Assembly: GCA_034926225.1 (NCBI GenBank)
Contig: JAYFRF010000008.1
Coordinates: 128,132 to 192,131, forward strand
Length of the DNA stretch: 64,000 nucleotides
Source: Clostridiaceae bacterium
GTDB lineage: Bacteria; Bacillota; Clostridia; Oscillospirales; QAMX01
Direction of reading: 5' to 3'
In this document: positions 26,815 to 46,362 of the stretch, one piece after another
Layout of the letters: every line of letters starts with the position of its first letter
Numbering within the stretch: the first letter of the stretch is position 1
Notes under the pieces: model-generated
Database searches by the model: none
The model's input: only the letters and a program-made list of their open reading frames with translations
What the model was told of the DNA's origin: nothing
Made by a program: the position numbers and the translations under genes

Positions 26815-26939
26815 TACCCCTCATTCCTTCCGCCCCAAGTTTCTCCGTTTTCATTTAGAATACAACTATTTTCGTCAAAAGGCAAGAGTGTTCGTTAATT
26901 ATTATTGATCGATCCGGTGTATTATACGCGCTCGCTGAT

Positions 26940-26990
26940 AAGAAAAGCGCCCAGGAGACAAATCAGTCCCTTGAGCGCTTGCTTTTTAAC
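26940..26990 (-). terminator. Possible terminator after the 27005..28180 gene
   Basis: On the minus strand, an imperfect stem AAGCGCTCAAGGGA ... TCTCCTGGGCGCTT is followed by TTCTTATC. It needs G-U pairs and mismatches. Confidence 0.4.
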
Positions 26991-27004
26991 TTATATTGCT
27001 AATT

Positions 27005-28180
27005 TTATACTTCAGGAACGCTGATCTCCACCTCGCGGCCGATCTTTGCGGAGCGGTTGATACCGTCGATGATCGCCTGGTTGTAGATGATCTGGGAGGA
27101 CGGTACGGGCGCGGGACGGTTGTAGAGAATCGCATCGAGGAAGGAACGGATCTTCTGATCAAAGAGACCGCCCTCGAAGGGGTTCTTCACGATCGGGATG
27201 ATCGTCTCGGTCTGCTCGCCCGCAACCTCGTGATACAGCGTCATCGGACCGCCGACGGTGCCGTTCCAGCAGTCGGTGGACGGGATACGCAGGCCGGCCT
27301 TCGTGCCGAGGATGATCGTGTCGCCGGGGGTGTTGATGTTCATCGCCCACGCGATACGGAAGTCGAGGATGATGCCGCCCTCAAGACGGATGAACGCCGC
27401 CGCGAAATCGTCGACGCCGAAAGCCTTGGCATACTCCGGATGGCCGCGGCCGATGAAGGTCGCCGGGTTTTTGCCGAAGAAGTCGGAGGTGTAGCCGGAA
27501 ACGGTCAAAGGCTTCGGATAGCCGATCGCGTTGAGAACCATATCGAGCGAGTAGCAGCCGATATCGCCGAGCGCGCCGATGCCGCCGGTTTCCTTCGCGA
27601 TGAAGGAGGTGCCAAAGGGGGTCGGAATGCCGCGGCGACGGCCGCCGCCGGTCTGTATATAATAGATCTGACCCAGTTCGCCCGACTCGACGATCTTCTT
27701 GATCATCTGCATATTCGCGTCAAAGCGGGGCTGGAAGCCGATGGAAAGCACCTTGCCGGACGCCTTCTCAGCCTTGCGGATCTCGACAGCTTCCTCGAGC
27801 GTCACGCACATAGGCTTTTCGAGGAGGACGTTTACACCGCGGTTGAGCGCGTCGATCGTCGGCACCGCATGCGCCATGTTGTAGGTACAGACGGAAACCG
27901 CGTCAAGCTGCTCGTTTTCAAGCATGGAGAGGTGATCGGGATAAAGACGGACGCCCTCGACGCCGTGCTTCTTGAAAAACGCATCCGCCTTGCCGGGGAT
28001 CAAGTCCGCGCCCGCGACGATATCGACGTCGGGCTGTTTCAAATAGCTCATCATATGGGAATCGGCAATCCAACCGGTACCGATGATACCGACCTTTAAG
28101 CGGCGGCCGTTTTTGCAGCACTTGCAGCCGTCCTCGACCGGCGCGTCAATGTTTGTTAAGACGTCATCTGCTTTTTTCAT
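27005..28180 (-). CDS. Gfo/Idh/MocA-family NAD(P)-dependent oxidoreductase
   Basis: Rossmann N-terminus LKVGIIGTGWIADSH, the EKP motif (LLEKPM), and a C-terminal alpha/beta domain. AGGAGG SD. Confidence 0.85.
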   Translation of the reverse strand: MKKADDVLTNIDAPVEDGCKCCKNGRRLKVGIIGTGWIADSHMMSYLKQPDVDIVAGADLIPGKADAFFKKHGVEGVRLYPDHLSMLENEQLDAVSVCTYNMAHAVPTIDALNRGVNVLLEKPMCVTLEEAVEIRKAEKASGKVLSIGFQPRFDANMQMIKKIVESGELGQIYYIQTGGGRRRGIPTPFGTSFIAKETGGIGALGDIGCYSLDMVLNAIGYPKPLTVSGYTSDFFGKNPATFIGRGHPEYAKAFGVDDFAAAFIRLEGGIILDFRIAWAMNINTPGDTIILGTKAGLRIPSTDCWNGTVGGPMTLYHEVAGEQTETIIPIVKNPFEGGLFDQKIRSFLDAILYNRPAPVPSSQIIYNQAIIDGINRSAKIGREVEISVPEV

Positions 28181-28218
28181 GACTACTCGTCCTCCTAAAA
28201 AGAGATAAGGTATGGTTT

Positions 28219-28247
28219 ATTGTAGCATACCTTTTTTTGTTTTGCAA
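28219..28247 (-). promoter_or_regulatory. Sigma-A type promoter for the 27005..28180 oxidoreductase gene
   Basis: The minus strand reads TTGCAA - 17 nt - TACAAT, about 35 nt upstream of the start codon. Confidence 0.6.
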
Positions 28248-28282
28248 GGGTTTTAGGTAAGATTTAAAGCATCTAACCAAGC

Positions 28283-28640
28283 CTTCCCCAGGGGGAAGCT
28301 TGTCGGAGGGGGCGCTTCTCGCCCCCCTCCGACACCACCCTCCGCGCTACTTTCTTTGCCCCGGCAAAGAAAGTAACAAAGAAAGCCGTCTTAGGAGGAC
28401 TAAAGTCCTCCTAAGAACCCCCCCGGAACGGCGGCGACTTCGCGCCGCTTATACGGGGGAGTCTACGGGGATCTGTGCGACAATTTTTTGCTTCGCCCGT
28501 AACTTTTCTCTCGTATAAAAAAACGCCCTCAGGCGTTTTTTACTCACGTCCCTAAAAAGATGCTTTCTTATCCAATATTCTTTCTCTCGGAGAAAGAATA
28601 TTGGCGTGGGTGGTCTGGAGGGGCGAGGAGCCCCTCCAGA
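28283..28640. repeat. Cluster of eight independent near-perfect hairpins/palindromes (one is a canonical bidirectional terminator)
   Basis: H1 28283..28298 CTTCCCC/GGGGAAG. H2 28302..28333 GTCGGAGGGGG/CCCCCTCCGAC. H3 28349..28374 ACTTTCTTTGCC/GGCAAAGAAAGT. H4 28390..28415 CTTAGGAGGAC/GTCCTCCTAAG. H5 28431..28448 GCGGCG/CGCCGC. H6 28516..28541 AAAAAAACGCC/GGCGTTTTTT (terminator). H7 28572..28604 CCAATATTCTTTCTC/GAGAAAGAATATTGG (15 bp, perfect). H8 28614..28640 TCTGGAGGGGC/GCCCCTCCAGA. Confidence 0.8.
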
Positions 28641-28674
28641 AGGTATGATTCTGTACAAAGCTAAAGTAGAGCGG

Positions 28675-30828
28675 TCACAGTGTAATGATATGCACCGTCG
28701 CGATACGATCCGCCGAGCCGACGGCCAGCGTACGCTCGTCATGCGACAGCACGATGCTTGACAGCACGTTCGATTCCGTCGGACGATAGAAGCCGACGCT
28801 GTTGTAACTCAGGATACCGAGCTGACGTAAGCCCTCGTCGTCGTCATAGGTGAAGATATAGCCCATGTCCTCTTCATCGCCTGCGACGCCCCAAAGCTTC
28901 GTCTTCGCAGCGTTCGTACACATGCAGCGTACCGGACCGTATGCGGCCGCGCCGCCGAGGCAGTAGACTTTCCCATCCGCGCTGACCATCGCCAAAAGCG
29001 CGTCCATCGTGCCGACGATCGCGCGCCCGTCATGCCACGCGGCTGTCGCAGACGCTTTCGCGCGGTACCGCCGTCCCGTGGCTTCCGGCAGCCGGATGCC
29101 TTCGTCCACGGCCACCGGCTGAGGCAGGATATTTGCGCGGAGCCATTCGCGATACTCGCCGTCGATCGCGGAAAAATCCTCGCGCGAGAGGATATCATGA
29201 CCCTGAATGCGGAACACATACGCCGCCTCGCCGAAGCTCCCCTTCGCCCCGGTGACAACATGCAGCACATCCTTCTCATCGAACGCCATACCGATCACCT
29301 TCGCGTCCTCGATATGGTCGCAGAGTTCGCCTTTTTCGCCGATCTCGCGCCAGATGCGTACAGGATATGCGCGATCGATCGGGAACGCCTGGAATGGGTT
29401 GTTTTCGCTGTTCTCCTCCCCCGCCGTATTCTTCCTCGCACGCGCCTCAGCACGCTTGCGGATTTCCTCGTCCGTCAGCCTGACCGGATAGAAAATCGAA
29501 TGCGTCGTAACGGGTCCCTGTTCGTACATATATGGCCGGAACTCGGGTAAGTCAATGCGTACGACATCCGGGCCGTTCTCCCCAAAGCCGTGACCGACGT
29601 TGACAATATAGAGGATATCGCGGATATGGTCGCAAGCCATCTCCGTCGACCGGTTATGGACATAGTCCGGCGTACCGACCATCCCTAAAAGCTCAGGCTG
29701 GCCCCCATGCGTGATATCCCAGCGGCACAGATACTGCCCCGGGGTGTATCTGACATCCTCATCCGTGTCATAAGGACGCGTCTGCAGAATATACCACAGC
29801 ACACCGTATTTATCCATTGTCATGCAGTTGTTGCCCGTCGCGGACTTTGCCGACTGCGGACGCACAAGGTCGGTCACCTGCTCGCCATCCTTAAAGGGCA
29901 GAAGCTTGCCCGCCGATGTGATCTTTTTTGTCGCAAACTCGAGTCTATATAGGTCATAGGCATAAGGGTGGAACATGTAGAGGTATTTGCCGTCGGCGGA
30001 ATTTTCCGCCTGCCCGAGGTAGCGGTACCATGTGTTGTTGACATACCGGGGATTCCCCTCGGGGGAGTAATATGCCGGCACCTCTGCGCCGAGATCAACA
30101 AGTTTGTTCTCTTCCGTATCGATCATGAACGGGAAACCGGACTTCGTGCAGCCGTAGATATTGCCGTCCGCGCCGAGCGCCAGGCGGAAACAGAACACCT
30201 CGGCGGCTTTGCCGAGATCCTTCGTCACGCGGCGGGTATCGATATCGAAGCTGTAGACATGGCCGCGCATGAAGCCGATCATGTAAAGGCGGCGGTGCTT
30301 CGGGTCATATTTCGCGCCGTAAATCGATTCGTGCGGCACGGGGGTACCCCAGCTTTCGGCATGCCCTGTTATCGGGTCGTAGACGAGAATCTGCGAACCG
30401 GGGAAGCCCTCCCAGACATGGTTCTGGTGTCCGAACGGCATCCATTCCGTATGATGCTTTGCGCGGTCGGTGGAATGCGTCGTCGCGATGACGAGGTAGT
30501 CCTCCGGCTTGTCGCCTGTCGGGATGAAGTTGATCGACGTATGCAGCTTGGAATGCGGCAGCTGGCGCTCCTGCGGCAAAACAAGGTCTCCCGCATAAAA
30601 GCAGAGCACGAGTTTGTTTGTGTCGCGGTCATAGCGCACGAGCTTTGCATGGTCGCATTTCCCGGATTCGGAGGAAAGCGTCGTATAGAAGGTGCCGTCG
30701 GGCGCGCAGTCGCCGTCCCAGCAGCAGTTGAAGTTCTCGTTGCCGGGCATCCAGGGCTTCGCCTCATGCACACCGGTTTGATTGATCACGCGGTAATAAT
30801 CGTCGGAAAACTGATCGAAGTAGTACAT
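28675..30828 (-). CDS. Uncharacterised ~715-aa cytoplasmic beta-propeller-like protein, paralog 1 of 4 (last gene of the operon)
   Basis: 717 aa with no signal peptide. It aligns over its full length with the products of 31687..33840, 33837..36011 and 38240..40384. AGGAGG SD (AGGAGGCTAACTATG). Confidence 0.85.
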   Translation of the reverse strand: MYYFDQFSDDYYRVINQTGVHEAKPWMPGNENFNCCWDGDCAPDGTFYTTLSSESGKCDHAKLVRYDRDTNKLVLCFYAGDLVLPQERQLPHSKLHTSINFIPTGDKPEDYLVIATTHSTDRAKHHTEWMPFGHQNHVWEGFPGSQILVYDPITGHAESWGTPVPHESIYGAKYDPKHRRLYMIGFMRGHVYSFDIDTRRVTKDLGKAAEVFCFRLALGADGNIYGCTKSGFPFMIDTEENKLVDLGAEVPAYYSPEGNPRYVNNTWYRYLGQAENSADGKYLYMFHPYAYDLYRLEFATKKITSAGKLLPFKDGEQVTDLVRPQSAKSATGNNCMTMDKYGVLWYILQTRPYDTDEDVRYTPGQYLCRWDITHGGQPELLGMVGTPDYVHNRSTEMACDHIRDILYIVNVGHGFGENGPDVVRIDLPEFRPYMYEQGPVTTHSIFYPVRLTDEEIRKRAEARARKNTAGEENSENNPFQAFPIDRAYPVRIWREIGEKGELCDHIEDAKVIGMAFDEKDVLHVVTGAKGSFGEAAYVFRIQGHDILSREDFSAIDGEYREWLRANILPQPVAVDEGIRLPEATGRRYRAKASATAAWHDGRAIVGTMDALLAMVSADGKVYCLGGAAAYGPVRCMCTNAAKTKLWGVAGDEEDMGYIFTYDDDEGLRQLGILSYNSVGFYRPTESNVLSSIVLSHDERTLAVGSADRIATVHIITL

Positions 30829-30838
30829 AGTTAGCCTC

Positions 30839-31690
30839 CTAAGAAATCCATTTATCGGGTGAAATCTCGGAAAAATCCCCCTCGCGGAAACCCGCGGCGG
30901 TCAGATATTTTTCCGCTTCCGTGCGGTGATCGGGATAATCCGGCGTATCGCTGTCCCTGCCGTGGCAGTCGGAGCCGTAGGTCATCGGGATTCCCTTTTC
31001 GAACATATACCGCAAAAATTCCGCGTATTGGCGGCGGAAAAACTCCGATAAACTCGGCGAGATCAGCATATTCACGTTACATTCGATGTATTTGCCATGC
31101 TCCAGGAGGTTTGCACCCAGTTCGTCGTGCATAGCGCGCGGTATGACAGAAAAATCGTCGTACCACGAGCGGTTGCAGGACCACGGATGCCCGAGAATCG
31201 TCACGCGCGGGTCGGCGGCGAGTGCCATCTGCTGCCTAAACCACTCGCGGATCTGTGCGTCGACGCCGTTGTCCACCGCCTTCACATCGGCCACGTCAGT
31301 GCGCCAGTGCGCTGCGCCGACGGCGTAGCGGATACCGAGCGTTCGCATCTCGTTAAGCGTCAGCGCAAGCTCGATGCCATACGGCGTATCCTGCGGCACG
31401 GGGACATACCCCTCACGCGTGCCAGTACGGGCGATATAGTCGTATTCCGGCGACGCTATCGGCGTAAACTCCACGCCGAGGATCATCTCCGGAACGCTTT
31501 CGGCCGCCGCGCGGTAGTTTGCGGCCGATCGGCGGATGTTTTCCATGAATTTAGCATCGTTGAAGTTTGCGTGATCGGTCGTTCCGAAGCCGCGCAAGCC
31601 CTGCTCCCGCGCGCGTTTGATCAGCGTGTTAAGCGGGAGCTTTGCGTCGTAGGAAGCGTCGGTATGGATATGCCAGTCGGAGTGAATCAC
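30839..31690 (-). CDS. PHP-domain (histidinol-phosphatase-like) metal-dependent phosphoesterase
   Basis: SDWHIHTDASYD (HxH), TTDHANF, GAAH, ILGHPW and YGSDCHG blocks match the PHP-family metal ligands. Its GTG start overlaps the stop of paralog 2 (GTGA). Confidence 0.75.
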   Translation of the reverse strand: MIHSDWHIHTDASYDAKLPLNTLIKRAREQGLRGFGTTDHANFNDAKFMENIRRSAANYRAAAESVPEMILGVEFTPIASPEYDYIARTGTREGYVPVPQDTPYGIELALTLNEMRTLGIRYAVGAAHWRTDVADVKAVDNGVDAQIREWFRQQMALAADPRVTILGHPWSCNRSWYDDFSVIPRAMHDELGANLLEHGKYIECNVNMLISPSLSEFFRRQYAEFLRYMFEKGIPMTYGSDCHGRDSDTPDYPDHRTEAEKYLTAAGFREGDFSEISPDKWIS

Positions 31691-33840
31691 TTTCCCATCG
31701 CCTCCGTATTCAAAAGATGCACGCAGGCCATCCGGTCGGCGTTGCCCACGGCAAGTATCTTCTCATCGGGGGACAACGCGACGGAGGTCAGCACATTGGC
31801 CTGCGTCGTACCGTAAAAGCCATGCGAATTATAGCTGATGATGCCAAGCTCGCGGATCCCGTGGCGGTCGTCGTAGCGGAACAGATATCCCATCCCCTCG
31901 AGGTCGCCCGCGACGCCATAAAGCACGGTTTTCGCCGCGTTTGCCGTCAGGCAGCGCACGGGGCCATTGGGCGCGCAGGTGCCGAGGTTAAAGACATGCC
32001 CGTCCGGGTACACGACCGCGAGGAGTCCGTCGCGCGTGCCGGCGATCGTGCGGCCCTGCGACCACGCGGCTGTCGCGGAGGCAATCGCGCGGTAGCGGCG
32101 TCCGGTGACTTCCGGCAGCTTGACGGTGTCGTCGAGGGTCACAGGCCAGGGCTCTACATGCGTACGGAGCCAATCGCGGTATTCGTCTTTCACAAGCCCC
32201 ATATCGAGTCTGCCGCAGATGTCGCGTCCGCGTAAGGTGAAAACGTATTTCGCATGTTCAAAATCCGATGGAACTCCTACCGCTCCGCCATCGCCCGTCA
32301 CGACGTGGAGGATACCGTCTTCATCGTAAGCCATGCCGACGACGGACGCGTCCTCGATGTGCGCGGACGGCACCTTTTCGAAGATGCGCACGGGATAGCA
32401 GTCGGCGTCCGGCACCGGCTGGAACGGATTCGACGCCGTGACCTCTTCGCCGACGAATTTTTTCAGGCGTTCGTCGCGCTTTTGTTTTTCCTCATCGGTG
32501 AGCTCGCGCCGGCGCAGTGCCTCGTCCTCCGAGATCGGCCCCGGCTCGTACATATGGGGCTTGTAGGCTTTCATATCGATCGCGATCACGTCCGGACCGT
32601 CCGCGCCGAAGCCGCGTCCGACGTTGCAGCAATAGAGAATGTCGTTTGCGTGATCGTACTCCATCTCACAGGTCAGGCGCTGGACGTTGCGGGGAGTACC
32701 GATGATGCCCAGGACCTCGGGCTGACGCCCCGCGTCGATGTCCCAGCGGCAGAGATAGCAGGGAATCGTATACGTAAAGTCGGAGGCGTTCTTGATCTGC
32801 CAGCCGCGCATGGCATACCACAGCACGCCCTCGCCGTCGATTGCGAAGGTATAGGTCGCGTAGCAGCTTTCCTTGTTCGGCAGCTCGACGATACCGTCCT
32901 CAGGCAACATCCGTCCGGCGCAGGTGACCTCTCCCGTTGCGTAGTCATAGCGCCAGAGGTGATCGGTGCAGGGCGCGAGCATATACAAAAACTTCCCCGA
33001 CGGGTGGCTCCGCGCAAGGCTCATCCAGCGGTACCAGGTATTGTTGATGTAGTTGTCCGGGTAATCCGGCACGCGGAAGTTTAAACTTTCAAGCTTATTT
33101 TCAGCGGTATTGACGCGGAAGAAATACCCCGCCTTGGAGCCGCCGTAGATGTTGCCGTCACCGCCGCGCGAGAGACGGTAGGAGCAGAACTCCATCCCGC
33201 GTCCGAGATCGACGATTTCTCTCGTATGAAGGTCATACGAATACACATGGCCGCGCATGAAGCCGACCATATACAGACGGTTGTGAACAGGGTCATACTC
33301 TGCGCCGTAGATCGATTCGCGCGGAACGGGGGTACCGAGGCTCCACGCATGCCCCGATTTTGGGTCGTAAACGAGAATCTGGGAGCCGGGGTATCCCTCC
33401 CACAAGTCGGGCTGGTGGGCAAACGGCATCCATTCGGTATGATGGCGCGAGCGGTCGGTGGAGTGGGTCGTCGCAATGACGAGGTAGTCTTCGGGATTTG
33501 ACAGATCGCCGTCAAATGAGCCGCGCGGGATGAAATCAATAGAGGTATGCAGCTTCGAGTGCGGCAGCTCCCGCTCACGCGGCATCACGATGTCGGCGGC
33601 GTAAAAGCACTCGACGAACTTGTTTTCGGCACGGTCATAGCGCATCAGACGGGCATGGTCGCATTTGCCGCCTTCGGAGGAATCGGTGAAGTAAAACACG
33701 CCGTCGGGGGAGAGAGCGCCGTCCCAGTTGCAATTGTAGTTTTCATATCCTGTTTCGGGAGGATACGCCTGCTGTACGCCGGTTTGATTGATCAGGCGGA
33801 AAGAATCGTCGGAAAAACGTTCAAAAACATACTTTTTCAT
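31687..33840 (-). CDS. Uncharacterised beta-propeller-like protein, paralog 2 of 4
   Basis: 717 aa with the same conserved blocks as paralog 1. Its start overlaps the stop of paralog 3 by 4 nt (ATGA), with a GAGGAG SD inside the upstream gene. Confidence 0.85.
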   Translation of the reverse strand: MKKYVFERFSDDSFRLINQTGVQQAYPPETGYENYNCNWDGALSPDGVFYFTDSSEGGKCDHARLMRYDRAENKFVECFYAADIVMPRERELPHSKLHTSIDFIPRGSFDGDLSNPEDYLVIATTHSTDRSRHHTEWMPFAHQPDLWEGYPGSQILVYDPKSGHAWSLGTPVPRESIYGAEYDPVHNRLYMVGFMRGHVYSYDLHTREIVDLGRGMEFCSYRLSRGGDGNIYGGSKAGYFFRVNTAENKLESLNFRVPDYPDNYINNTWYRWMSLARSHPSGKFLYMLAPCTDHLWRYDYATGEVTCAGRMLPEDGIVELPNKESCYATYTFAIDGEGVLWYAMRGWQIKNASDFTYTIPCYLCRWDIDAGRQPEVLGIIGTPRNVQRLTCEMEYDHANDILYCCNVGRGFGADGPDVIAIDMKAYKPHMYEPGPISEDEALRRRELTDEEKQKRDERLKKFVGEEVTASNPFQPVPDADCYPVRIFEKVPSAHIEDASVVGMAYDEDGILHVVTGDGGAVGVPSDFEHAKYVFTLRGRDICGRLDMGLVKDEYRDWLRTHVEPWPVTLDDTVKLPEVTGRRYRAIASATAAWSQGRTIAGTRDGLLAVVYPDGHVFNLGTCAPNGPVRCLTANAAKTVLYGVAGDLEGMGYLFRYDDRHGIRELGIISYNSHGFYGTTQANVLTSVALSPDEKILAVGNADRMACVHLLNTEAMGK

Positions 33841-36011
33841 ATCGTTTTCTCCTCTTGCTTCAGATCGATCACATGTACGGTGCCGAGTCTGTCTGCGCCG
33901 CCGATCGCGAGAGTATGCTCGTCCGGCGACAGCGCGACGCTCGAGAGAATATTCGACGCGGAAGGACGGTAGAAGCCGATGGAGTCGTAGTTGAGCATGC
34001 CGAGCTGCCGCAGGCCGTTTCGGTCATCGTAGGAGAACACATACCCCATGTCGAGCTTGTCTCCCGCGACGCCCCAAAGCTTCGTCTTCGCGGCGTTCGT
34101 GACCATACAGCGCACCGGACCGTACGCCGCCGCGCCTCCGAGGGAAAAGACCTCGCCTGCCTCGTCGATCACGGCAAGCTGGGCGTCGCGCGTGCCGACG
34201 ATGGTACGACCGCCGTTCCACTCCGCCGTCGCCGTCGCGTGGGCGCGATAGCGGCGTCCCGTGACCTCCGGCAGCCGGATATTCTCATCAAAGCACACCG
34301 GCTGCGGCAGGATATGCGTGCGCAGCCACTCGCGGTAGGCTTCCTTGATCGTACCGAAGTCCGCGCGGGACTCGATCTCGCGGTAACGGATACGGAAAAC
34401 GTACTTTGCTTCGTCAAACCGATCCGTCTCGCCGGTGACGACGTGCAGAATGCCGTCTTCGCCGTAGCACATGCCGATGACCTCCGAATCCTCTGGACGC
34501 AGCACGGCGTTCCACAAACGGACGGGATACGCGTCGCGGTTTGGAAACGCGACAAAGGGGTTTGATTCCGTGACCTGTTCGCCCGCGCCGACCTTCCGAC
34601 GCGCTTCCTCGCGTGCCATTTCCTCGGGGCTTGCGTGTCTCGGATAGATGCGCGGCTCTTCGGTATACGGGCCCTGTCGCTGCGCGACGGGCAATGCGTT
34701 CTGACACTGCCACCCTTGCGAAACCGCGCCGCTCGACCCAAGCTGCCTCCGAAACTCCGGCAGGTCGATGCAGAGTACGCAGGGGCCCTTATGCCCAAAT
34801 CCCGTACCGTGGTCAACGGTATAGATTCGGTCGGTCGCGGGGTCGTATTCCATTTCGACCGTGATGCCGTGGACACGCTCCGGCGTTCCCATCACGCCGA
34901 TGTATTCCGGCGCCTTACCGTTTTCGATATCCCAACGCATGAGCTTCGAATAGTAGGGGTTTAACCGTACATCCGTCGTATATTTATGCAGCGATATACG
35001 CAGTTCGTACCAGATCACGCCGTACTTATCCACCGCGAACGATCCGCAGCTGTAGTCCACCGCCGCGAAATCGACGGGGAACAAGCCCTCGCCCGGCACC
35101 AGTCGGCCGGCTGTCGTAAACTCGCCGGTTTCGAAGTCATATTGGTACAGTTCCCAACCGGAGCTGTTCGTTAAGTACATGAACTTCCCCGACGGATGCA
35201 TTCGCGCGCAGGTCAGGTAACGGTAATGCGTGTTGTTCGACAGCGCCCCCGGATAGTACGGCACCTGACGGTGCAGATCCTCAAGGATGTTCTTTTCGGT
35301 ATTGATGCGGTAATACTCGCCGGACTTTGTGCAGGAGTAAATATTGCCGTCTGAGGCGAGCGAGAGACGGTAGTTAAAGACCTCCGCGGCCTTGCCCAAG
35401 TCCTCCACCTTCCGCGTTTTGCAGTCCATGCTGTAGACATGCCCGCGCATGAAGCCGATCATATAGAGCCGGTCGTGCGCGGGATCATACTTCGCGCCGT
35501 AAATCGTTTCACGCGGCACGGGCGTCCCCCAGCTTTCGGCGTGTCCAGTATCGGGATCGAACATGAGAATTTGCGAGCCGGGGAAGCCCTCCCAGATATC
35601 CGCGTGATGCGCGAAGGGCATCCATTCGGTATGTTGCGGCGCGCGGTCGGTGTTGTGAGTAACACCGAGGACGGTATAGCCGCAGCCGCCGGTCTTCGGG
35701 CGAAAGTTGATCGACGTATGGAATTTTGAATGCGGAAGCTGGCGCTTCTGCGGCATCACGACGTTGCCCATGTAGACGCATTCTTCGACGGCGTTCTTAT
35801 TGTAGTTATAGCGCACAAGCTTTGCGTGGTCGCATTTTCCGGCTTCGGAGGAGAGCGTATAGTAGAAGACGCCGTCGGGGGAAAGCGCGCCGTCCCAGCA
35901 GGTGTTGAAGTTGCCGTTGCCTTCCTCATCGGGTTCGACCGCGCGGACGCCGGCCTGTGGTATCAGATGATAATAATCCGGATCGTCATAGGATTTGAAA
36001 AGATAAGCCAT
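33837..36011 (-). CDS. Uncharacterised beta-propeller-like protein, paralog 3 of 4
   Basis: 724 aa with the same blocks. It has a longer and different central linker (…SSGAVSQGWQCQNALPVAQRQGPYTEEPRIYPRHASPEEMAREEARRK…). AGGAGG SD. Confidence 0.85.
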   Translation of the reverse strand: MAYLFKSYDDPDYYHLIPQAGVRAVEPDEEGNGNFNTCWDGALSPDGVFYYTLSSEAGKCDHAKLVRYNYNKNAVEECVYMGNVVMPQKRQLPHSKFHTSINFRPKTGGCGYTVLGVTHNTDRAPQHTEWMPFAHHADIWEGFPGSQILMFDPDTGHAESWGTPVPRETIYGAKYDPAHDRLYMIGFMRGHVYSMDCKTRKVEDLGKAAEVFNYRLSLASDGNIYSCTKSGEYYRINTEKNILEDLHRQVPYYPGALSNNTHYRYLTCARMHPSGKFMYLTNSSGWELYQYDFETGEFTTAGRLVPGEGLFPVDFAAVDYSCGSFAVDKYGVIWYELRISLHKYTTDVRLNPYYSKLMRWDIENGKAPEYIGVMGTPERVHGITVEMEYDPATDRIYTVDHGTGFGHKGPCVLCIDLPEFRRQLGSSGAVSQGWQCQNALPVAQRQGPYTEEPRIYPRHASPEEMAREEARRKVGAGEQVTESNPFVAFPNRDAYPVRLWNAVLRPEDSEVIGMCYGEDGILHVVTGETDRFDEAKYVFRIRYREIESRADFGTIKEAYREWLRTHILPQPVCFDENIRLPEVTGRRYRAHATATAEWNGGRTIVGTRDAQLAVIDEAGEVFSLGGAAAYGPVRCMVTNAAKTKLWGVAGDKLDMGYVFSYDDRNGLRQLGMLNYDSIGFYRPSASNILSSVALSPDEHTLAIGGADRLGTVHVIDLKQEEKTI

Positions 36012-36029
36012 GGTTAGACCCTCCTTATT

Positions 36030-38216
36030 TCATTGACCTTCGGCGAGGTATACGGACACACGGCTCTGTATCAACGCCGCTGTTTCCTCGCATGTCCTCA
36101 CGCCGGCGTAGTAAGCCGGCAGCTCGTCGTAGATGATGTCCAGAATCGTATTGTCGCGGTAATCTCCGTAGCGGATACTGCGTACCAGCGCGTCAAACGT
36201 GGTGATGATTTCCGGCGTTGCGGCATAGATGTAATGGTAAGTATTATCCCTTGTGTAGCGTGTGCGCGCCTGTTCGACCCGTACACCGTCCACGATGTTA
36301 TAATAATTGACCTGCGCCTCCGCCAGCATATCGGCATACGGCTTCTCCCACGCCGGGATATAATGGTATCGGTGGATGCCGTTGTCGCTTCCGAGTACCT
36401 GAAAGTAGCTTTCGTCGTCGGTTATTAGGAAATGCAGGAATGCCCACGCGGCATCCGGTCTTTCACAGGCAGTCGTAATGCCGTACAGCTCCATCACCTG
36501 CGCGATCGTTCCGACGCCGTCCTCCGACGGATAGCCGGTGACCGTCAGACCGCCATCGAGCGTCTGGCAACTGATCTGATAGCTGTCCACGCTGGAATAC
36601 GCTTCCATTTTCAGCAATGCCCGGCCGTCGAGCAGTCTGTCGACCGCCGACTCCTCCAAGTCCTCGATGGTCTCCGGGAAGCGTGCGCAAAGCTCTAATA
36701 TCTTATAAAATCCTTCGTTTTCAAAATCACACACGCCGTTTTCATAGTCAACAAAGGCTGCTTGTACAGTAAAGGCAAAAAAATCAAAGGCTTTTGCACG
36801 CGGGATGTTTGCCACCGGCTGGATGACTCCCGGGTTCTCATCCAGCAACATGGCAAACTCCTCCACGCGCAGTCCATCGTCGGCGCGGTTTCCCACAACT
36901 TCCGGCAGCGCGCTCATTGTTGAAATAAGAAAGCGCGGCGAAATCCCCGCCAGCTTGTCCTTGTATTCCCACAGCACACGAATGTTGGGTAAAATGCCGC
37001 CCAGCTCCGTGTCGCCGTCGACATACGCGGACAAATCCAGCAACAGCCCTTTATCCATGTAGCTTTTATACGGCAAATACCGCAGCTCGAGCATATCGGG
37101 ACATTTCCCCGCGATCATATCGAGATGCAGCCGATCCTCCCCTTCCCGCCAGCCGTCGTCCGTGTTATAGACGGAATAATCCGCGAGTTCCACGCGATAG
37201 TCCGCGCTTTGCATGTTAAAACGGAGAATCGCCGCCTTTAAGTCCCGGTTGTTCCCCGTAACGCCGATGGTCAGCACCGTTTTACGCTCCTCCGCCGTTG
37301 CCCGACGCAGAATCCGCAGCGAAAGTGTTCCCCCGTCGTTATAGGCATAGCAAAGCGTCGGCTCGCCGCCGGAAAGCCCCGATGCAAGAGCGGTGATCTC
37401 CTCGGCGATCGCGTCCGCGTCGGAGAAGGCAAAAAGCCGGGTGACGGAGGCGTCGGAGAGCGTAAAACCCGCTGCATCCGACCCGTAGAGATAAAGATCA
37501 TACACGCTGTCACCCGGTGCGAGACGGGTATACCCCGTAGAATAGGTCTGCGAAAAGCCGTTTCGGGTATCCGCATCGCAGATGCACATAACCGCGCCGT
37601 CCGGACGCGCGACCGCTGCCGCCGCACGTCCGTCGGAGAGCCTTGCAAGCGCTGTCACACCAGTCACAGCCACGGATAAGCGCCGTTTTCCATCCGCGCC
37701 GTACGCCGCCAGTCTTCCTCCCGCGTATAGCCAGGCTGTCCCCTCACCGTCCTGCACCGCCACGGGATTGGTGAACGCTTCACCGTTTTCACCATACAGT
37801 TCGGTGACGTCTGCGCGGGCAAGCTCTGTTCCCGTATTATCCAGCCGGACGAGTGTGTGCGACACGTAGGAGCTGTTCCGGCGAACGCTCTCCACGAGCC
37901 ACAGCGGTTCGCCGTCTTTTCCCGGCAGCAGAAGCGTCGGATGCGCATCCCCCGAAATCTCATACGGGAAACGCGTAGAATTTCCCTCCGCGTCGACGAA
38001 ATAGGTACCCAAAACGCCGTCCTTTGCGGTGATCATCCACAGCTGCCCGTCGCCTGTCGGCATCGTATTGGAGATAAAAGTCAGCGGTGTTTCGAGCGTA
38101 TCCGAACGATACGCGAGCGCGGCGTCAAGCCTGGCGACCGCCGTCTGGGACGGGGCGGCCGCGCAGGCGCATAGCAGCAAAAGCGATACGATCAGCCATA
38201 AAAGTCTGCGCGGCAT
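36030..38216 (-). CDS. Lipoprotein: N-terminal beta-rich domain of unknown function fused to an extracellular solute-binding (ABC family-1-like) domain
   Basis: Signal peptide/lipobox MPRRLLWLIVSLLLLCAC. The C-terminal ~420 aa look like a sugar-type SBP (TIGVTGNNRDLKAAILRFN...YRVELADY...KCPDMLEL...). The ATG at 38216 has a GGGAGG SD. The track start at 38237 is a TTG. Confidence 0.7.
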   Translation of the reverse strand: MPRRLLWLIVSLLLLCACAAAPSQTAVARLDAALAYRSDTLETPLTFISNTMPTGDGQLWMITAKDGVLGTYFVDAEGNSTRFPYEISGDAHPTLLLPGKDGEPLWLVESVRRNSSYVSHTLVRLDNTGTELARADVTELYGENGEAFTNPVAVQDGEGTAWLYAGGRLAAYGADGKRRLSVAVTGVTALARLSDGRAAAAVARPDGAVMCICDADTRNGFSQTYSTGYTRLAPGDSVYDLYLYGSDAAGFTLSDASVTRLFAFSDADAIAEEITALASGLSGGEPTLCYAYNDGGTLSLRILRRATAEERKTVLTIGVTGNNRDLKAAILRFNMQSADYRVELADYSVYNTDDGWREGEDRLHLDMIAGKCPDMLELRYLPYKSYMDKGLLLDLSAYVDGDTELGGILPNIRVLWEYKDKLAGISPRFLISTMSALPEVVGNRADDGLRVEEFAMLLDENPGVIQPVANIPRAKAFDFFAFTVQAAFVDYENGVCDFENEGFYKILELCARFPETIEDLEESAVDRLLDGRALLKMEAYSSVDSYQISCQTLDGGLTVTGYPSEDGVGTIAQVMELYGITTACERPDAAWAFLHFLITDDESYFQVLGSDNGIHRYHYIPAWEKPYADMLAEAQVNYYNIVDGVRVEQARTRYTRDNTYHYIYAATPEIITTFDALVRSIRYGDYRDNTILDIIYDELPAYYAGVRTCEETAALIQSRVSVYLAEGQ

Positions 38217-38239
38217 AAGAAGCCCCTCCCTATTCAATT

Positions 38240-40384
38240 TTACAGTGTGATGATATGCACGGTTCCAATCCTGTCCGCGCCGCCGATAGCGAGAACCTTG
38301 CCGTCCGGGGACAGCGCGATGCTCGACAGCACGTTCGACGCCGTCGGGCCGTCAAAATAGCCGTGCGAGTTGTAGTTGAGGATGCCGAGCTGGCGCAAGC
38401 CCTCCTCGTCGTCGTAGGCAAAGACGTAGCCCATGTCCTCGTCGTCGCCCGCGACGCCCCAAAGCTTTGTTTTGGCGGCATCGGTGACCATGCAGCGGAT
38501 CGGCCCGTACGCAGCGGCACTGCCGAGGCTGTAGACCTTGCCGTCAGGCTTTACGATGGCCAGCATCGCGTCCAGCGTGCCGACGATTTTCCGTCCGCCG
38601 TTCCAGTCCGCGACGGCGCTCGCCTTCGCACGGTAGCGGCGTCCGGTCGCCTCCGGCAGCTTGATCGACTCGTCGAACATCACCGGCTGCGGCAGTATAT
38701 TTGCGCGGAGCCATGCGCGGTACTCGTCATGGATGTACGCCATCTCGCGCACGCCCTCGACCTTGCCGCGTACGATGCGCATGACATACTTCGCGTTGTC
38801 GAAGGTATCGCCCTTCCCGCAGACGACATGCAGTACGGTATCCTCGCCGGTTTTATCCGGTTCAAAGGCCATGCCAACGACCTTCGATTCCCCGACATCG
38901 AGGCGCGGCAGACTGCGCCAGATACGTACGGGGGTCACCTTTGCCGGCGGGAACGCCTGGTAGGGGTTATGCTCGGTGACCTCCTCGCCGATCTTTTTGG
39001 CGGCCTTCGCACGGCGCTCCGAAAGCTCCTCGGGCGTCAGCTTGCGCGGTATAAGGACCGCGTCGTCGGAGACGGGGCCGCGCTCGCGATACACGGGGCG
39101 GAATGCGGACAGGTCTATGGCCGTGACGCCGGGGCCGTCGGCGGCGAAGCCGCGTCCGACGTTCGCGCAATAGAGAATATCGCGTTCGGGGTCGTATTCC
39201 ATTTCGGTCACGCTGTTCTCGACGCGGTGCTCGGTGCCGATGATGCCGCAGCAGTACGGCTCCTCGCCGTTTTCGACATCCCAGCGCAGCAGATAGCAGG
39301 GACGCGGGTCTGTATATTCCGTATCGTTGTGGATGCTCCAGTGATGGACGCAGAACCAGATTACGCCGTCTTTGTCGAGGACGAAACTATGCGGATTCCA
39401 GCTTCCGTCGGCGGCCGGCAGCTCGTAAAGGCCGTCACCGGGCATAATCTTACCCGCTCGATAAACCTCGCCCGTGGCAAAATCCAGCTTGTACATGTAC
39501 GGTGCGACGGCGAACATCATATACATGAACTTCCCCGAAGGATGGTTGCGCGCATTCTCCATATAGCGGTACCAGGTGTTGTTTACATAATTATTCTCAT
39601 ACTCCGGTACACGGAAGTTCATATGCTCGAGTTCGTTCTTCTCGGTATCGATGCGGAAGAGCTGTCCGGCCTTCGTACAGCCATAGATATTGCCGTCTGC
39701 GCCGAGCTTTAAGCGGTAGCAGTAAAGCTCCGCGACCTTGCCGAGGTCCTTCGTCACGCGGCGGGAAGCCACGTCGAAGCAGTAGACATGTCCGCGCATA
39801 AAGCCGATCATATATAAACGGTTATGTACGGGGTCATACTTGGAGCCGTAGATCGATTCATGCGTCACAGGGGTGCCAAGCGACTGGGCATGTCCGGTCT
39901 TCGGGTCATAGACGAGAATCTGTGAGCCGGGGAACCCTTCCCAGACGTGGTTATGGTGCCCAAACGGCATCCACTCGACGTGCTGCCTCGCACGATCCGT
40001 CGAGTGCGTCGTCGCAATGACGAGGTAATCTTTAGGGTCGTCGGGCGCTTCAGGATAGAAGGCGTGTCTGGGCATGAAATTGATCGACGTATGGAGCTTA
40101 GAGTGCGGGAGCTGCCGATCCTGCGGCAGGACGAGCGAACCGGCGTAAAAACACTCAATGATGCGGTTTTCATCGAAATCGTAGCGGACGAGCTTCGCGT
40201 GATCGCATTTTCCGGCTTCGGAGGACAGTGTATAGTAAAAAGTTCCGTCGGGTGCCAAAGCACCGTCCCAGCAGGCGTTGAAGTTTTCGTTTCCTTCCGC
40301 CTGAGGCGCCGCCTGACGGACACCGGTCTGGTTGATGACGCGGTGCGCTTCGTCGGAAAAGCGGTCAAATACGTAGTTTTTCAT
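38240..40384 (-). CDS. Uncharacterised beta-propeller-like protein, paralog 4 of 4 (first gene of the operon)
   Basis: 714 aa starting at MKNYVFDRFSDEA, which aligns with the N-termini of the other three paralogs. AAAGGAGGCTAACCATG SD context. The track start at 40543 would run through the promoter and into the upstream gene. Confidence 0.85.
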   Translation of the reverse strand: MKNYVFDRFSDEAHRVINQTGVRQAAPQAEGNENFNACWDGALAPDGTFYYTLSSEAGKCDHAKLVRYDFDENRIIECFYAGSLVLPQDRQLPHSKLHTSINFMPRHAFYPEAPDDPKDYLVIATTHSTDRARQHVEWMPFGHHNHVWEGFPGSQILVYDPKTGHAQSLGTPVTHESIYGSKYDPVHNRLYMIGFMRGHVYCFDVASRRVTKDLGKVAELYCYRLKLGADGNIYGCTKAGQLFRIDTEKNELEHMNFRVPEYENNYVNNTWYRYMENARNHPSGKFMYMMFAVAPYMYKLDFATGEVYRAGKIMPGDGLYELPAADGSWNPHSFVLDKDGVIWFCVHHWSIHNDTEYTDPRPCYLLRWDVENGEEPYCCGIIGTEHRVENSVTEMEYDPERDILYCANVGRGFAADGPGVTAIDLSAFRPVYRERGPVSDDAVLIPRKLTPEELSERRAKAAKKIGEEVTEHNPYQAFPPAKVTPVRIWRSLPRLDVGESKVVGMAFEPDKTGEDTVLHVVCGKGDTFDNAKYVMRIVRGKVEGVREMAYIHDEYRAWLRANILPQPVMFDESIKLPEATGRRYRAKASAVADWNGGRKIVGTLDAMLAIVKPDGKVYSLGSAAAYGPIRCMVTDAAKTKLWGVAGDDEDMGYVFAYDDEEGLRQLGILNYNSHGYFDGPTASNVLSSIALSPDGKVLAIGGADRIGTVHIITL

Positions 40385-40426
40385 GGTTAGCCTCCTTTGT
40401 TTGATTGGAATTCCCGCACATCGTGG

Positions 40427-40455
40427 ATTATAGCAGACCTTGTCGCAGTTTACAA
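40427..40455 (-). promoter_or_regulatory. Near-consensus sigma-A promoter of the paralog operon
   Basis: The minus strand reads TTGTAA (40450..40455) - 17 nt - TATAAT (40427..40432), about 40 nt upstream of the ATG at 40384. Confidence 0.7.
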
Positions 40456-40497
40456 GCTTTTTGCACAAATATTCTGGACGGTTTTTTCCGTCAATTG

Positions 40498-40965
40498 TCA
40501 CTTTCTGTCCTGTCGGGCACGCAGTGATTTCGCATGCGCCCATTCCTCGCGTTCCTCATCGGTCTGCGGCCGTAGTTCCGGCACCTGGGTCGGATGATCG
40601 TCCTCATCGAGCGCCACCATCGTCAGATACGCCGAATTGATGAGCTTGCACGCCCCGTCGAGCGCTTCCACATAGGAGTGGACGCGCACAACCATGGACG
40701 TATTCCCGGCGTAGACGATCTTTCCCTTCAGGACGACCGTGCTGTTCGGCACCGCGGGCTCCCGGAACTCCAGTCGCTCGACCGCCGCCGTCGTAACGTT
40801 GCGTTCCGAGTGCCGTCTGGCGACGACCGCCGCGACAATGTCGATCCACTCCATCAGGCGTCCTCCAAACAGCCGGTTCGTGCCGTTCATCGAACTGAGG
40901 GTCAGCACCTGTACCTGCTCCGCCGTGGAATCCAGCGGTGTTTTTACTTTTCTTTCCTGTGCCAT
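40498..40965 (-). CDS. Acyl-CoA thioesterase, hotdog fold (YciA/BFIT-like)
   Basis: 155 aa. NGTNRLFGGRLMEWIDIVAAVVARRH ... VTTAAVERLEFREP ... GNTSMVVRV is typical of the acyl-CoA thioester hydrolase family. Confidence 0.75.
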   Translation of the reverse strand: MAQERKVKTPLDSTAEQVQVLTLSSMNGTNRLFGGRLMEWIDIVAAVVARRHSERNVTTAAVERLEFREPAVPNSTVVLKGKIVYAGNTSMVVRVHSYVEALDGACKLINSAYLTMVALDEDDHPTQVPELRPQTDEEREEWAHAKSLRARQDRK

Positions 40966-41131
40966 TATTTTTATTATCCTTTCCCATCATCAGTAGATAA
41001 GGTATTGTATCATACACTTCCCCTTATCTACAAGAGAAAACATTTTTATGCATAAAAATAACTTGTGTTTTTCGGAAAATGGTGGTACACTGAATTTACC
41101 TTTGAATCATATAAAGGAGCGTTGTGGACAT

Positions 41132-42202
41132 ATGGATAAGAACAATATCGGTTACGCGGTCCTCGGACTTGGCGTCGGCGTCGGCCACGTCAAGGGCGCC
41201 GCGCATCTGCAGGGCGGACGGCTCGTAGCTATCTGCGACCTAAAAACCGACCGGCTTGAAAAGGTCTCCTCTGAGCTTGCGGCCGAAGGCGTCAACGTAA
41301 AGACGTATGCCAATTATGCCGAAATGCTGCGCGACCCGGAAATCGACGTCGTTTCCATTGCGACTCCCTCCGGTATGCACGCCGAGCACGCGATGATGGC
41401 GATGCGCGCCGGGAAGCATGTCCTCATCGAAAAGCCAATCGACGTCTCCGTCGCCCGCGCCGAGGAAATCGTGCGCGTATGGAAGACGATGGGCGTCAAG
41501 GCGTCCTGCGTATTTCAATGCCGCCGCTGGCCGTGCATTGACGAAATCCGCCGTGTCCTCGCGGAGGGCAAGCTCGGCGACGTCTTCTCCGGCTTCTTCC
41601 GCATCAACTGGCTGCGCACCGACGAATACTTTTCCGGCACCACCATCGCATCCGGCGAAGCCTGGCGCGGGACATGGGCCTGGGACGGCGGCGGCAGCCT
41701 GATGAATCAGGGCGTGCATACCACCGACCTGATGCAGTGGCTGATGGGCGGCGTCGAATCTGTCATTTCCGTGACAAATATCTTCAATCACAAGATCGAA
41801 ACGGAGGATTTTACCTCCTCCATCGTTAAATTTAAGAGCGGCGCTATCGGCAACCTCGTCTCAACCACCTGCAATGGCGGCAAGACTTCCACCGATATTC
41901 AGATTTACGGCACCAAGGGCTCGATCTCGATGGATGCGGGTAAGATCACATCCTGGGTCGTCCCGGGCGAAGACGAAGCGGAAATGATCGCGCGTTTTGC
42001 CGATGGCGGCGCGGCTGTCACAAAGAACGCAGCCGCCGCAACAGGACATGCCTTCCATGTACAGGATCTCGTCGATGCCATCCGTGAGGACAGAGCGCCC
42101 TACATCCAGCCGGACGAAGCGCTCGACGCATTAAAAGTTGTGCTCGCCGTCTACAAATCCGCAAAGGAAGGCCGCGAGGTCTTTATCCGCGATATGGAAT
42201 AA
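41132..42202 (+). CDS. Gfo/Idh/MocA-family oxidoreductase
   Basis: IGYAVLGLGVGVGH Rossmann N-terminus, the EKP motif (LIEKPI), and a C-terminal domain. The first in-frame ATG after AAAGGAG is at 41132. The track start at 41048 lies in an AT-rich promoter-like region. Confidence 0.85.
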   Translation: MDKNNIGYAVLGLGVGVGHVKGAAHLQGGRLVAICDLKTDRLEKVSSELAAEGVNVKTYANYAEMLRDPEIDVVSIATPSGMHAEHAMMAMRAGKHVLIEKPIDVSVARAEEIVRVWKTMGVKASCVFQCRRWPCIDEIRRVLAEGKLGDVFSGFFRINWLRTDEYFSGTTIASGEAWRGTWAWDGGGSLMNQGVHTTDLMQWLMGGVESVISVTNIFNHKIETEDFTSSIVKFKSGAIGNLVSTTCNGGKTSTDIQIYGTKGSISMDAGKITSWVVPGEDEAEMIARFADGGAAVTKNAAAATGHAFHVQDLVDAIREDRAPYIQPDEALDALKVVLAVYKSAKEGREVFIRDME

Positions 42203-42228
42203 AGTTTATATAGGGAGGATATTGTCTT

Positions 42229-43215
42229 ATGCGCGTTGCCATGATTAGCGGTTGGCATGTCCATGCCAAAGGGTACGCAAACACCTTAAAGAATCATCCG
42301 GGCGTCGAAATCGCCGCCGTTTACGATTCCGATACGCTTTGGAATCACGGCACGGAATCCGGGAAGAAGTGGGCCGAGGAACTCGGGTGCCCGTATGTCG
42401 GAAGCTTTGACGCCATTCTGGCAGACCCCTCGATCGACGGCGTCGCGATCTGCGCGCCGACGTCTGCGCATCCGGAATTGATGATCCGCGCAGCCGACGC
42501 GGGCAAGGCGATCTTTACCGAAAAGGTGCTCGCCCTGACCGCCGCCGACGCCTATCGGATTCGGGACGCGGTAAACCGCAACAACACCCTTTTCACAATC
42601 TCCTATCCTCATAAAACCCTTCCCTCCATCCTGTTTGTCAAAAATCTCGCCGATACCGGTGCGCTTGGCGTCCTCACCTATGCCCGTATGCGCAATGTCC
42701 ATTCCGGCAGCATTGCCGACTGGCTCCCGCCGCATTTCTACGATGAGAAAGCCTGCGGCGGCGGCGCAATGATCGATCTCGGCGCGCATCCGTGCTACAT
42801 CCTCGATTGGTTTTTAGGAAAGCCCGAAAGCATCCAGTCCTGCTTTACGAACGTCACGCCGCGCGCGGTCGAGGACAACGCCGTCTGCCTGTTCCGTTAT
42901 GCATCCGGCGCAATCGGCGTATCCGAAACCGGCTTCGTCTCCGTCGCCGACCCGTATGAGTTCCATCTTTCCGGTACGAAGGGTGCGGCTTATGTCCGCG
43001 GGCAGGAAGTGTTCTATGCAACCGAAGCCACCGAGAAGAAGTGGGTCAAGGCCGAATCCCTTCCGGAAGCGCCGGTTTCTCCGTTGATTTCCTGGGCAGA
43101 TTCGTTTATGAACGACAAGCCCTCCGCGTACGGTATTGACGAAGCGGTGGAGCTGTCCGAGATCATGGACGCCGCCTATCGTGCCTCCGGTTCCCGAGCG
43201 GAAGCAAGCCTGTAA
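42229..43215 (+). CDS. Gfo/Idh/MocA-family oxidoreductase (second copy)
   Basis: MRVAMISGWHVHAKGYA N-terminus, FTEKVLA (an EKP-like motif), and GGGAMIDLGAHP. GGGAGG SD. Confidence 0.8.
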   Translation: MRVAMISGWHVHAKGYANTLKNHPGVEIAAVYDSDTLWNHGTESGKKWAEELGCPYVGSFDAILADPSIDGVAICAPTSAHPELMIRAADAGKAIFTEKVLALTAADAYRIRDAVNRNNTLFTISYPHKTLPSILFVKNLADTGALGVLTYARMRNVHSGSIADWLPPHFYDEKACGGGAMIDLGAHPCYILDWFLGKPESIQSCFTNVTPRAVEDNAVCLFRYASGAIGVSETGFVSVADPYEFHLSGTKGAAYVRGQEVFYATEATEKKWVKAESLPEAPVSPLISWADSFMNDKPSAYGIDEAVELSEIMDAAYRASGSRAEASL

Positions 43216-43292
43216 GTCTGTTTGCTCGTTTTCCCCATATCGCATGCTCTTCCCCTCGGTTCAACAATACACACGATAGGAGAAATTTTTTT

Positions 43293-46315: not shown

Positions 46316-46362
46316 AAATAAGCGCTCTGTCAAGACTTTTTGTCCGACAGAGCGCTTATTTT
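46316..46362. terminator. Bidirectional terminator between pepD and the DUF2087 regulator gene
   Basis: AATAAGCGCTCTGTC (46318..46331 core) / GACAGAGCGCTTATT (46346..46360), flanked by A- and T-runs. Confidence 0.75.

Follow-up and report, generated by a model that had tools for sequence, protein, structure and literature searches.

Why would a bacterium keep four diverged copies of one large protein in a single operon, and what could these copies do? The question is raised by a six-gene cassette in a 64-kb stretch of DNA from a Clostridiaceae bacterium (contig JAYFRF010000008.1, positions 128,132 to 192,131; hereafter the window). A preliminary description of this DNA had noticed four tandem paralogs of an uncharacterised protein, packed together with a PHP phosphoesterase and a lipoprotein. 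We find that the four proteins are propellers of a small and unannotated family, that they belong to old subfamilies kept in a conserved order, and that their relatives have been multiplied repeatedly in a carbohydrate-rich gene neighbourhood. The reading that we favour, tentatively and with slightly less than even confidence, is that the locus encodes specialised cytoplasmic propeller enzymes that act on carbohydrates, kept together as a conserved catabolic cassette.

The cassette is read from the minus strand, and its genes are, in order of transcription:

38240..40384, minus strand: paralog D, 714 amino acids (aa), first gene of the array, D-type subfamily; open reading frame (ORF) matching the public annotation
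36030..38216, minus strand: lipoprotein X, 728 aa from ATG 38216, between D and C; lipobox LCAC and a weak SBP_bac_1-like segment
33837..36011, minus strand: paralog C, 724 aa, C-type subfamily; ORF and alignment
31687..33840, minus strand: paralog B, 717 aa, B-type subfamily, its start overlapping the stop of C (ATGA); ORF and alignment
30839..31690, minus strand: PHP-family phosphoesterase, 283 aa, its GTG start overlapping the stop of B; Pfam match and ligand motifs
28675..30828, minus strand: paralog A, 717 aa, last gene of the array, A-type subfamily; ORF and alignment

The positions, strand and lengths of the four paralogs are exactly those first described. The proteins can be aligned end to end with global pairwise identities of 51-61 %, in line with the initial estimate that about half of the residues are shared. 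Six of the eight sequence motifs originally proposed are present in all four paralogs; an exact match to the two long C-terminal ones is confined to A and B, with C and D differing at a few positions. An alternative upstream ATG exists for the D frame at 40543, and the 714-aa form is a 100 % match to public annotation VB111_07900. In that annotation all genes of the cassette (VB111_07875 to VB111_07900) are called "hypothetical". The tight packing was likewise borne out: A and the PHP gene are 10 nt apart, two junctions overlap by 4 nt (GTGA and ATGA), and the remaining gaps measure 18 nt and 23 nt, the latter between D and the lipoprotein gene and on the presumption that the lipoprotein starts at ATG 38216. 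The absence of signal peptides and transmembrane helices in the paralogs also held: none has a hydrophobic segment (maximum KD19 at most 1.2), and the four proteins are therefore predicted to be cytoplasmic.

Database searches place these proteins outside all annotated families, as had been supposed, with nothing above threshold in Pfam, NCBIfam, PADLOC or PDB sequences. Pfam and NCBIfam scans of A to D returned no model at its cut-off and only WD40, DUF6923 and SGL below threshold. For WD40 (PF00400) the best window copy reached 18.1 bits against a cut-off of 27, and 31 of 55 family members matched, all below threshold. The SGL model (PF08450) gave 13.5-18 bits against 26.3 over inconsistent short stretches; it matched below threshold in 22 of the 55 members (best E-value 1e-5) and as a precomputed match in two homolog clusters. 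Reg_prop appeared below threshold in a single member. The PADLOC-DB 2.0 scan found no model for any of the seven proteins submitted, profiles built from 4, 55 and 23 aligned sequences hit only designed 'Cake' propellers (one blade motif) and noise among PDB sequences, and literature searches found no paper on the propeller family.

The family is real but small. A word-indexed search yielded 280 homologs, all named ones being called hypothetical, and when 1.84 billion cluster representatives were searched exhaustively with a profile, 625 matched at E<=1e-3 and 134 at E<=1e-30. In a scan of one genome per species we found 69 loci, nearly all in metagenome-assembled genomes (MAGs) and the rest in uncultured bins or a metagenome assembly. 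They are spread over Oscillospiraceae, Faecousia, other Clostridia, Lentisphaerae, Victivallis, Kiritimatiellaeota, Treponema and Bacteroidales; protein P0119 of a Verrucomicrobia MAG and its locus also belong to the family. Identity across phyla (Clostridia versus Lentisphaerae, Kiritimatiellaeota and Verrucomicrobia) is about 45-50 %. No homolog was found in the plasmid search.

The suggestion of a beta-propeller fold was upheld by structure prediction. AlphaFold2, given full-length D and the 55-sequence alignment, returned a model with a predicted local distance difference test (pLDDT) score of 93.9 and a predicted template modelling (pTM) score of 0.93. The model has seven four-stranded blades (residues 40-424) in a ring closed by an N-terminal strand (22-25); a helix-bearing linker (about 430-480) leads on to the C-terminal beta domain (483-713), which has about four blades. 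The N-terminal domain modelled alone (445 residues) reached a pLDDT of 91.6. Foldseek matches are all propellers. Against the PDB, the full model finds tandem WD40 propellers and the double-propeller sensors of Bacteroides hybrid two-component systems (HTCS), with TM-scores of 0.2-0.33, and the N-terminal domain finds seven-bladed WD40 domains with target-normalised TM-scores of 0.70-0.75 and 9-12 % identity. None of the propeller enzyme families is among the top 50 matches of the N-terminal domain. Judged by this model the propeller fold is correct, yet the fold by itself assigns no function.

Across 55 homologs from several phyla, 65 columns are invariant, many of them His, Asp, Glu, Arg, Lys, Trp and Tyr in blades 1-3. 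They include W39, D40, K96, H98, H127, W148, E149, E176 and H199; D130, H135, E137 and R197 are nearly invariant. All four window paralogs retain every invariant residue. The blades average about 60 residues and carry long loops on the top face that are rich in invariant His, Asp and Glu. From the secondary-structure register, the conserved residues are predicted to lie on the 'top' face, where the active site of propeller enzymes is usually found, in the D-to-A and B-to-C loops of the first three blades. The conserved WEGFPGS loop (142-149) has a pLDDT of about 85 in the full-length model and about 46 in the isolated N-terminal domain; this fall when the C-terminal domain is missing places the loop at the domain interface and suggests that it packs against the C-terminal domain. 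A search for subfamily-specific residues as marks of specificity gave just nine strict positions, scattered and uninformative.

Each window copy has orthologs elsewhere at 65-88 % identity, compared with 51-61 % between the copies themselves, so that the duplications must be old. Clustering at an identity of at least 64 % resolves four subfamilies whose operon order is preserved:

Window: D-C-B-A
L001: D-C-B-D'-A
L010: D-C-A
L009: D-C, the contig end falling within a third copy
L015: D-A

Orthologs of D (71-88 %) stand first in the arrays of L015, L009, L010, L001 and L012, those of C (65-78 %) second in L009, L010 and L001, and those of A (71-88 %) last in L015, L001 and L010. Orthologs of B (65-73 %) occur in L001/L011 and L012, and in L001 the B ortholog is followed by a PHP gene, as in the window. 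These comparisons point to four old orthologous subfamilies whose order, D-C-B-PHP-A, is kept in other Clostridia genomes.

Multiplication of the family has happened more than once. The Faecousia arrays, of 3-5 copies, are a separate expansion inside one cluster, and arrays of 3-5 copies arose again in a third lineage. Three independent tandem expansions are seen, and loci of the family hold between 1 and 6 copies. The Oscillospiraceae MAG SIG502 holds 17 ORF hits in eight loci (L012, L032, L053, L054, L059, L068, L072 and L075), with tandem arrays of 6 and 5, which is extreme for a family without annotation. The copies in Lentisphaerae, Kiritimatiellaeota and Verrucomicrobia are dispersed and single.

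The closest genome, L015, is syntenic with the window on both flanks: two Gfo/Idh/MocA genes, a thioesterase gene, D, PHP, A and a further Gfo/Idh/MocA gene are shared at 79-92 %. The interior differs, being D-FAD oxidoreductase-PHP-A in L015 versus D-X-C-B-PHP-A in the window. The window genes that flank the cassette are:

41048..44855, plus strand: divergent unit of two Gfo/Idh/MocA oxidoreductases (syntenic in L015 at 89-90 %) and a sodium:solute symporter
40498..40965, minus strand: 4HBT (hotdog) thioesterase, immediately upstream of D; conserved adjacency
27005..28180, minus strand: Gfo/Idh/MocA oxidoreductase, downstream of A, with its own promoter-like site; conserved neighbour, its 92 % ortholog standing directly after the A ortholog in L015

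The expression signals fit a cassette that is transcribed as a whole. We scanned 15 kb (26500-41500) for promoters and terminators against shuffled sequence, with two outstanding results:

40427..40455, minus strand: sigma-70-type promoter TTGTAA-17-TATAAT with an extended -10 TG, 43 nt upstream of the D start
28301..28640, no strand assigned: downstream hairpin cluster, including the bidirectional terminator AAAAAACGCC-N4-GGCGTTTTTT at 28518-28541

The promoter, which had been noted ahead of the first gene, is the top match of the scanned region (10/12), and the internal promoter matches (9/12) and internal terminator-like matches are at the level of shuffled sequence. The terminator reported after the last gene is an A6-stem-T6 element (28518-28541) and is accompanied by further perfect hairpins. 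From the promoter, terminator and junction signals, one transcription unit for the cassette is plausible. The thioesterase gene may be co-transcribed in the same unit: its ortholog in L015 (85 %) sits 42 nt upstream of the D ortholog, and no clear terminator lies between the thioesterase gene and the operon promoter. The thioesterase has no obvious role alongside sugar enzymes.

Six hairpins are clustered in 340 nt between A and the next gene, with arms of 10-15 bp, 100 % complementarity and mutually different sequences; one of the stems, at 28389-28416, is 13 bp long. In the whole window only 13 perfect hairpins have arms of 10 bp or more, and these are 6 of them. In L015 just 92 nt separate the syntenic genes, so that the cluster has the appearance of an insertion made up of stacked terminators or palindromic elements. 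Searched against Rfam, it gave chance-level matches and no family.

One earlier proposal has to be given up. Three of the copies share the same Shine-Dalgarno (SD) context, which had been taken to suggest that gene-plus-ribosome-binding-site units were duplicated. D, C and A do share the context GGAGG..CTAAC[CT]ATG, with CTAAC[CT] spacers between SD and ATG at 40385-40400, 36012-36029 and 30829-30838. However, the duplications are old, and the CTAAC spacer is absent upstream of the D, C and A orthologs in L015, L001, L010, L009 and L012, that is, even in the closest genome. It is therefore no relic of a gene-plus-RBS duplication, and is best regarded as a within-genome feature that arose by convergence or local conversion.

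Carbohydrate metabolism dominates what surrounds the family elsewhere. For a census of neighbours we took same-strand, closely spaced genes at about 65 non-redundant loci and scanned them with Pfam. The counts are:

ABC sugar permeases (BPD_transp_1): 7
PHP: 6
Gfo/Idh/MocA: 5
PF12831 FAD oxidoreductase: 4
DUF3502 sugar-binding proteins: 4
Aldo/keto reductase: 3
Alpha-L-fucosidase (GH29): 2
FGGY kinase: 2

One locus unites a propeller gene with an AraC regulator, a xylose-isomerase-like gene and an FGGY kinase, and one five-copy array contains a GH27 gene and two PHP genes. GH29 adjoins a propeller in two further cases, and GH78, BNR_2, LacI and a sugar ABC system are found nearby. The locus of the closest relative, L015, has GH32 and a PF12831 FAD-dependent oxidoreductase, the latter between D and PHP (12226-13509); another PF12831 gene lies at 755-2032 of L025. 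The PF12831 family is itself poorly characterised.

Fusions point in the same direction. In distant secreted relatives the entire double propeller is joined to a C-terminal domain, either of AGE type (GlcNAc 2-epimerase; 1114 aa) or of tannase/feruloyl-esterase type (1177 aa). At L078 (10001-16868), P0274 and P0283 are arranged tail to tail beside DUF4838 and GHL6 genes; P0184 and P0187 are further relatives of this kind. In these secreted fusions the propeller could be a binding module.

The two cassette genes that are not propellers, the PHP phosphoesterase and the lipoprotein, were both identified correctly at the outset: the former matches the PHP domain (PF02811) at 41.6 bits against a cut-off of 26.4, and the lipoprotein signal of the latter is present. 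The PHP protein has all metal ligands of its family (H7, H9, E74, H128, H168, D241 and H243). It scores 32.9 bits against 90.2 for the HisJ subfamily (TIGR01856), and its matches among PDB sequences reach only E=0.28-0.55. It resembles HisJ-type PHP proteins and YcdX in fold and in its complete metal-ligand motifs, and departs from them in its sub-cut-off TIGR01856 score and its non-histidine context. PHP homologs adjoin family members in L015, L001/L011 (two), L032 (three), L075 (two) and L081. A beta-propeller phytase or inositol pathway, prompted by the PHP, Gfo/Idh/MocA and SSF genes, was considered and dropped, there being no specific match.

Lipoprotein X reaches 25.1 bits against a cut-off of 26 for PF01547, over residues 361-430 only, and the identical database entry has a precomputed PF01547 match. 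In a word-filtered search of a 5.8-billion-cluster database its sole match was its own entry, and none of 77 related loci contained a homolog by BLASTP at E<=1e-4. It is an orphan insertion that breaks an otherwise conserved D-C adjacency.

How far do known systems resemble the propellers? WD40 proteins (WDR5; Thermomonospora curvata, PDB 5yzv) share the seven blades and the N-terminal closing strand, with TM-scores as given above. They differ in identity (9-12 %), in lacking the extra C-terminal beta domain, and in their scaffolding role as opposed to a place in a bacterial catabolic operon; membership among WD40 scaffolds was rejected on the sub-cut-off Pfam score. The periplasmic sensor domains of the Bacteroides HTCS BT4663, BT4673 and BT3049 likewise have two propellers and a similar length, come from glycan-utilisation loci and, as established for BT4663, bind oligosaccharides. 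Unlike them, A to D match with TM-scores of just 0.2-0.3, are predicted to be cytoplasmic and are without Y_Y_Y, transmembrane, kinase or AraC output domains. Membership among HTCS sensors was rejected, A to D having no transmembrane segment and no kinase, receiver or helix-turn-helix domain.

Similar in biological logic are PL22, GH43 and GH130, cytoplasmic propeller enzymes that finish imported oligosaccharides and are often multiplied within a genome. PL22 oligogalacturonate lyase is seven-bladed and cytoplasmic and binds Mn through His, and the His-rich conserved site of A to D is reminiscent of it, a resemblance that offers no more than a lead. Neither sequence nor Foldseek connects these families with A to D; size and domains differ, and no uronate-pathway genes are nearby.

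For catalysis, the location of the active site, the class of substrate and the roles of the PHP protein and lipoprotein X, we propose the following. Each of the D-, C-, B- and A-type proteins would be an enzyme, functionally differentiated from the others. The active site would lie on the top face of the N-terminal propeller, formed by loops of blades 1-3 and capped by the C-terminal domain, with W39/D40, K96/H98, H127-D130-H135-E137, W148-E149, E176 and R197/H199 as candidate active-site residues; the invariant His and carboxylates could bind a metal or serve in acid/base catalysis. Substrates would be imported carbohydrate-derived molecules, for example oligosaccharides or glycosides with pentose or deoxyhexose units, and the four subfamilies may act on different linkages or in successive steps. 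The PHP protein might remove phosphate from a substrate or intermediate, and in this genome only, the solute-binding-like domain of lipoprotein X might capture substrate at the cell surface. More specifically, the family could form a new class of carbohydrate-active enzyme (glycoside hydrolase, lyase or related) with a double-propeller architecture, a His-rich and possibly metal-containing interdomain site, and possibly a multi-propeller assembly with PHP; we consider this narrower proposal possible but rather doubtful.

Several explanations compete with a set of carbohydrate enzymes. The paralogs could instead be parts of a hetero-oligomeric multi-propeller complex, a scaffold or a multi-subunit enzyme in which PHP is a further subunit. 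Such a complex would explain why the order D-C-B-PHP-A is kept though orthologs are only 65-88 % identical, and the ATGA and GTGA overlaps suggest translational coupling. In addition, the identity across phyla is unusually high for 700 aa and could reflect many interaction surfaces, and the fold is matched best by WD40 double propellers that serve as scaffolds. Yet related genomes make do with only D and A (L015), with D, C and A (L010) or with singletons. Dispersed singletons occur in Lentisphaerae, Kiritimatiellaeota and Verrucomicrobia, and the Faecousia arrays expanded separately within one subfamily. Every copy, moreover, keeps the full invariant polar set, whereas complex subunits often lose active sites. 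We judge a complex of this kind unlikely, and favour a set of specialised enzymes over a fixed hetero-oligomer because copy number ranges from 1 to 6, because D+A and D+C+A subsets exist and because the expansions were independent. A role in anti-phage defence or another conflict system was considered since one single-copy homolog, that of L004, has type I restriction-modification, HEPN and AAA/TPR genes around it; with no PADLOC match for the seven proteins, no plasmid homolog, and metabolic surroundings in the other contexts (about 65), we give it hardly any credence.

Other readings keep the link to sugars and change the activity. SMP30/gluconolactonase-like lactonases, or related ring-opening hydrolases of an oxidative sugar pathway, are also soluble propellers (SMP30/gluconolactonase/LRE-like, PF08450), and similarity to their profile recurs weakly, below threshold, in two fifths of the 55 members. 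On this reading the sugars would be oxidised by the neighbouring Gfo/Idh/MocA, FAD or aldo-keto-reductase enzymes and the products hydrolysed by the propellers. Sugar oxidoreductases are frequent beside the family, redox enzymes being the commonest non-transport neighbours, and the operon has three Gfo/Idh/MocA genes on its flanks, with synteny in L015. The profile scores do not exceed 18 bits against 26.3, however, and they fall on different blades in each protein, as expected of generic blade similarity. SGL enzymes are six-bladed, of about 300 aa, with Glu/Asn/Asp metal ligands, whereas the present family is seven-bladed and His-rich, with an extra domain and other conserved residues, and no SGL-type structure is among the top 50 Foldseek matches. 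A lactonase is in our view improbable, to about the same degree as the complex. Somewhat less probable still are non-catalytic cytoplasmic sugar-binding proteins, whether sensors or chaperones. Sensor domains BT4663, BT4673 and BT3049 are among the top full-length Foldseek matches, and secreted relatives join the propeller to an obvious catalytic domain, as expected of a binding module. But the TM-scores are low (0.2-0.33) and no output or DNA-binding domain is present; four to six cytoplasmic binding proteins per catabolic operon would have no obvious role; and one propeller gene is co-directional and contiguous with sugar isomerase and kinase genes, the usual position of a catabolic enzyme.

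The enzyme reading itself has to be set against a number of observations that count against it. Neither sequence nor fold matches any characterised enzyme, the best Foldseek matches being non-catalytic WD40 scaffolds and the glycan-sensing HTCS double propeller, and the placement of the active site rests on secondary-structure register. The secreted fusions replace several of the 'catalytic' positions (D130S, E137T, H199 lost). The link with PHP is facultative, occurring at about 6 of about 65 propeller loci. A search from the PHP side found propellers flanking PHP in 1 of 13 metagenome contigs, most of which are too short to judge, and the propeller partnership is absent from the longer ones. 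Among the scanned window ORFs there is no sugar ABC permease for lipoprotein X, the sole ABC permease found belonging to a zinc-uptake system (21116-23616). Finally, some loci are without carbohydrate genes, L004 with its restriction-modification and HEPN genes being an example, and a few others are uninformative.

Two further regions of the window deserve mention. About 6 kb upstream of the cassette, a minus-strand group (46361-51091) encodes a DUF2087/sigma-70 region 4 regulator, a DUF4886 protein, a xylose-isomerase-like TIM barrel, an AXE1-like esterase and an ApgM-type phosphoglycerate-mutase-like metalloenzyme; an ApgM-type mutase-like gene also lies directly beside the five-copy array in L001. 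Positions 2001-4000 form a low-GC island (GC 0.40 versus 0.53-0.63 elsewhere) that may have been acquired horizontally. It contains a minus-strand ORF at 2799-3947 (382 aa) without a Pfam match, flanked by perfect hairpins at 2147-2198 (22-bp arms), 2742-2777 and 3970-4004.

Both the fold and the type of locus, a sugar-utilisation operon with multiplied enzymes, are familiar; the family lies outside curated families and is without a solved relative. The conserved D-C-B-PHP-A order offers a ready set of proteins for expression and testing. If the four propellers do represent a new class of enzyme, uncultured Clostridia of guts and digesters would dismantle a class of glycans or glycosides for which no cytoplasmic pathway is known, by means of ordered multi-paralog cassettes. 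If they are an enzyme family, these proteins would mark a missing step in the degradation of plant or host glycans by uncultured anaerobes and a new catalytic use of the propeller fold.

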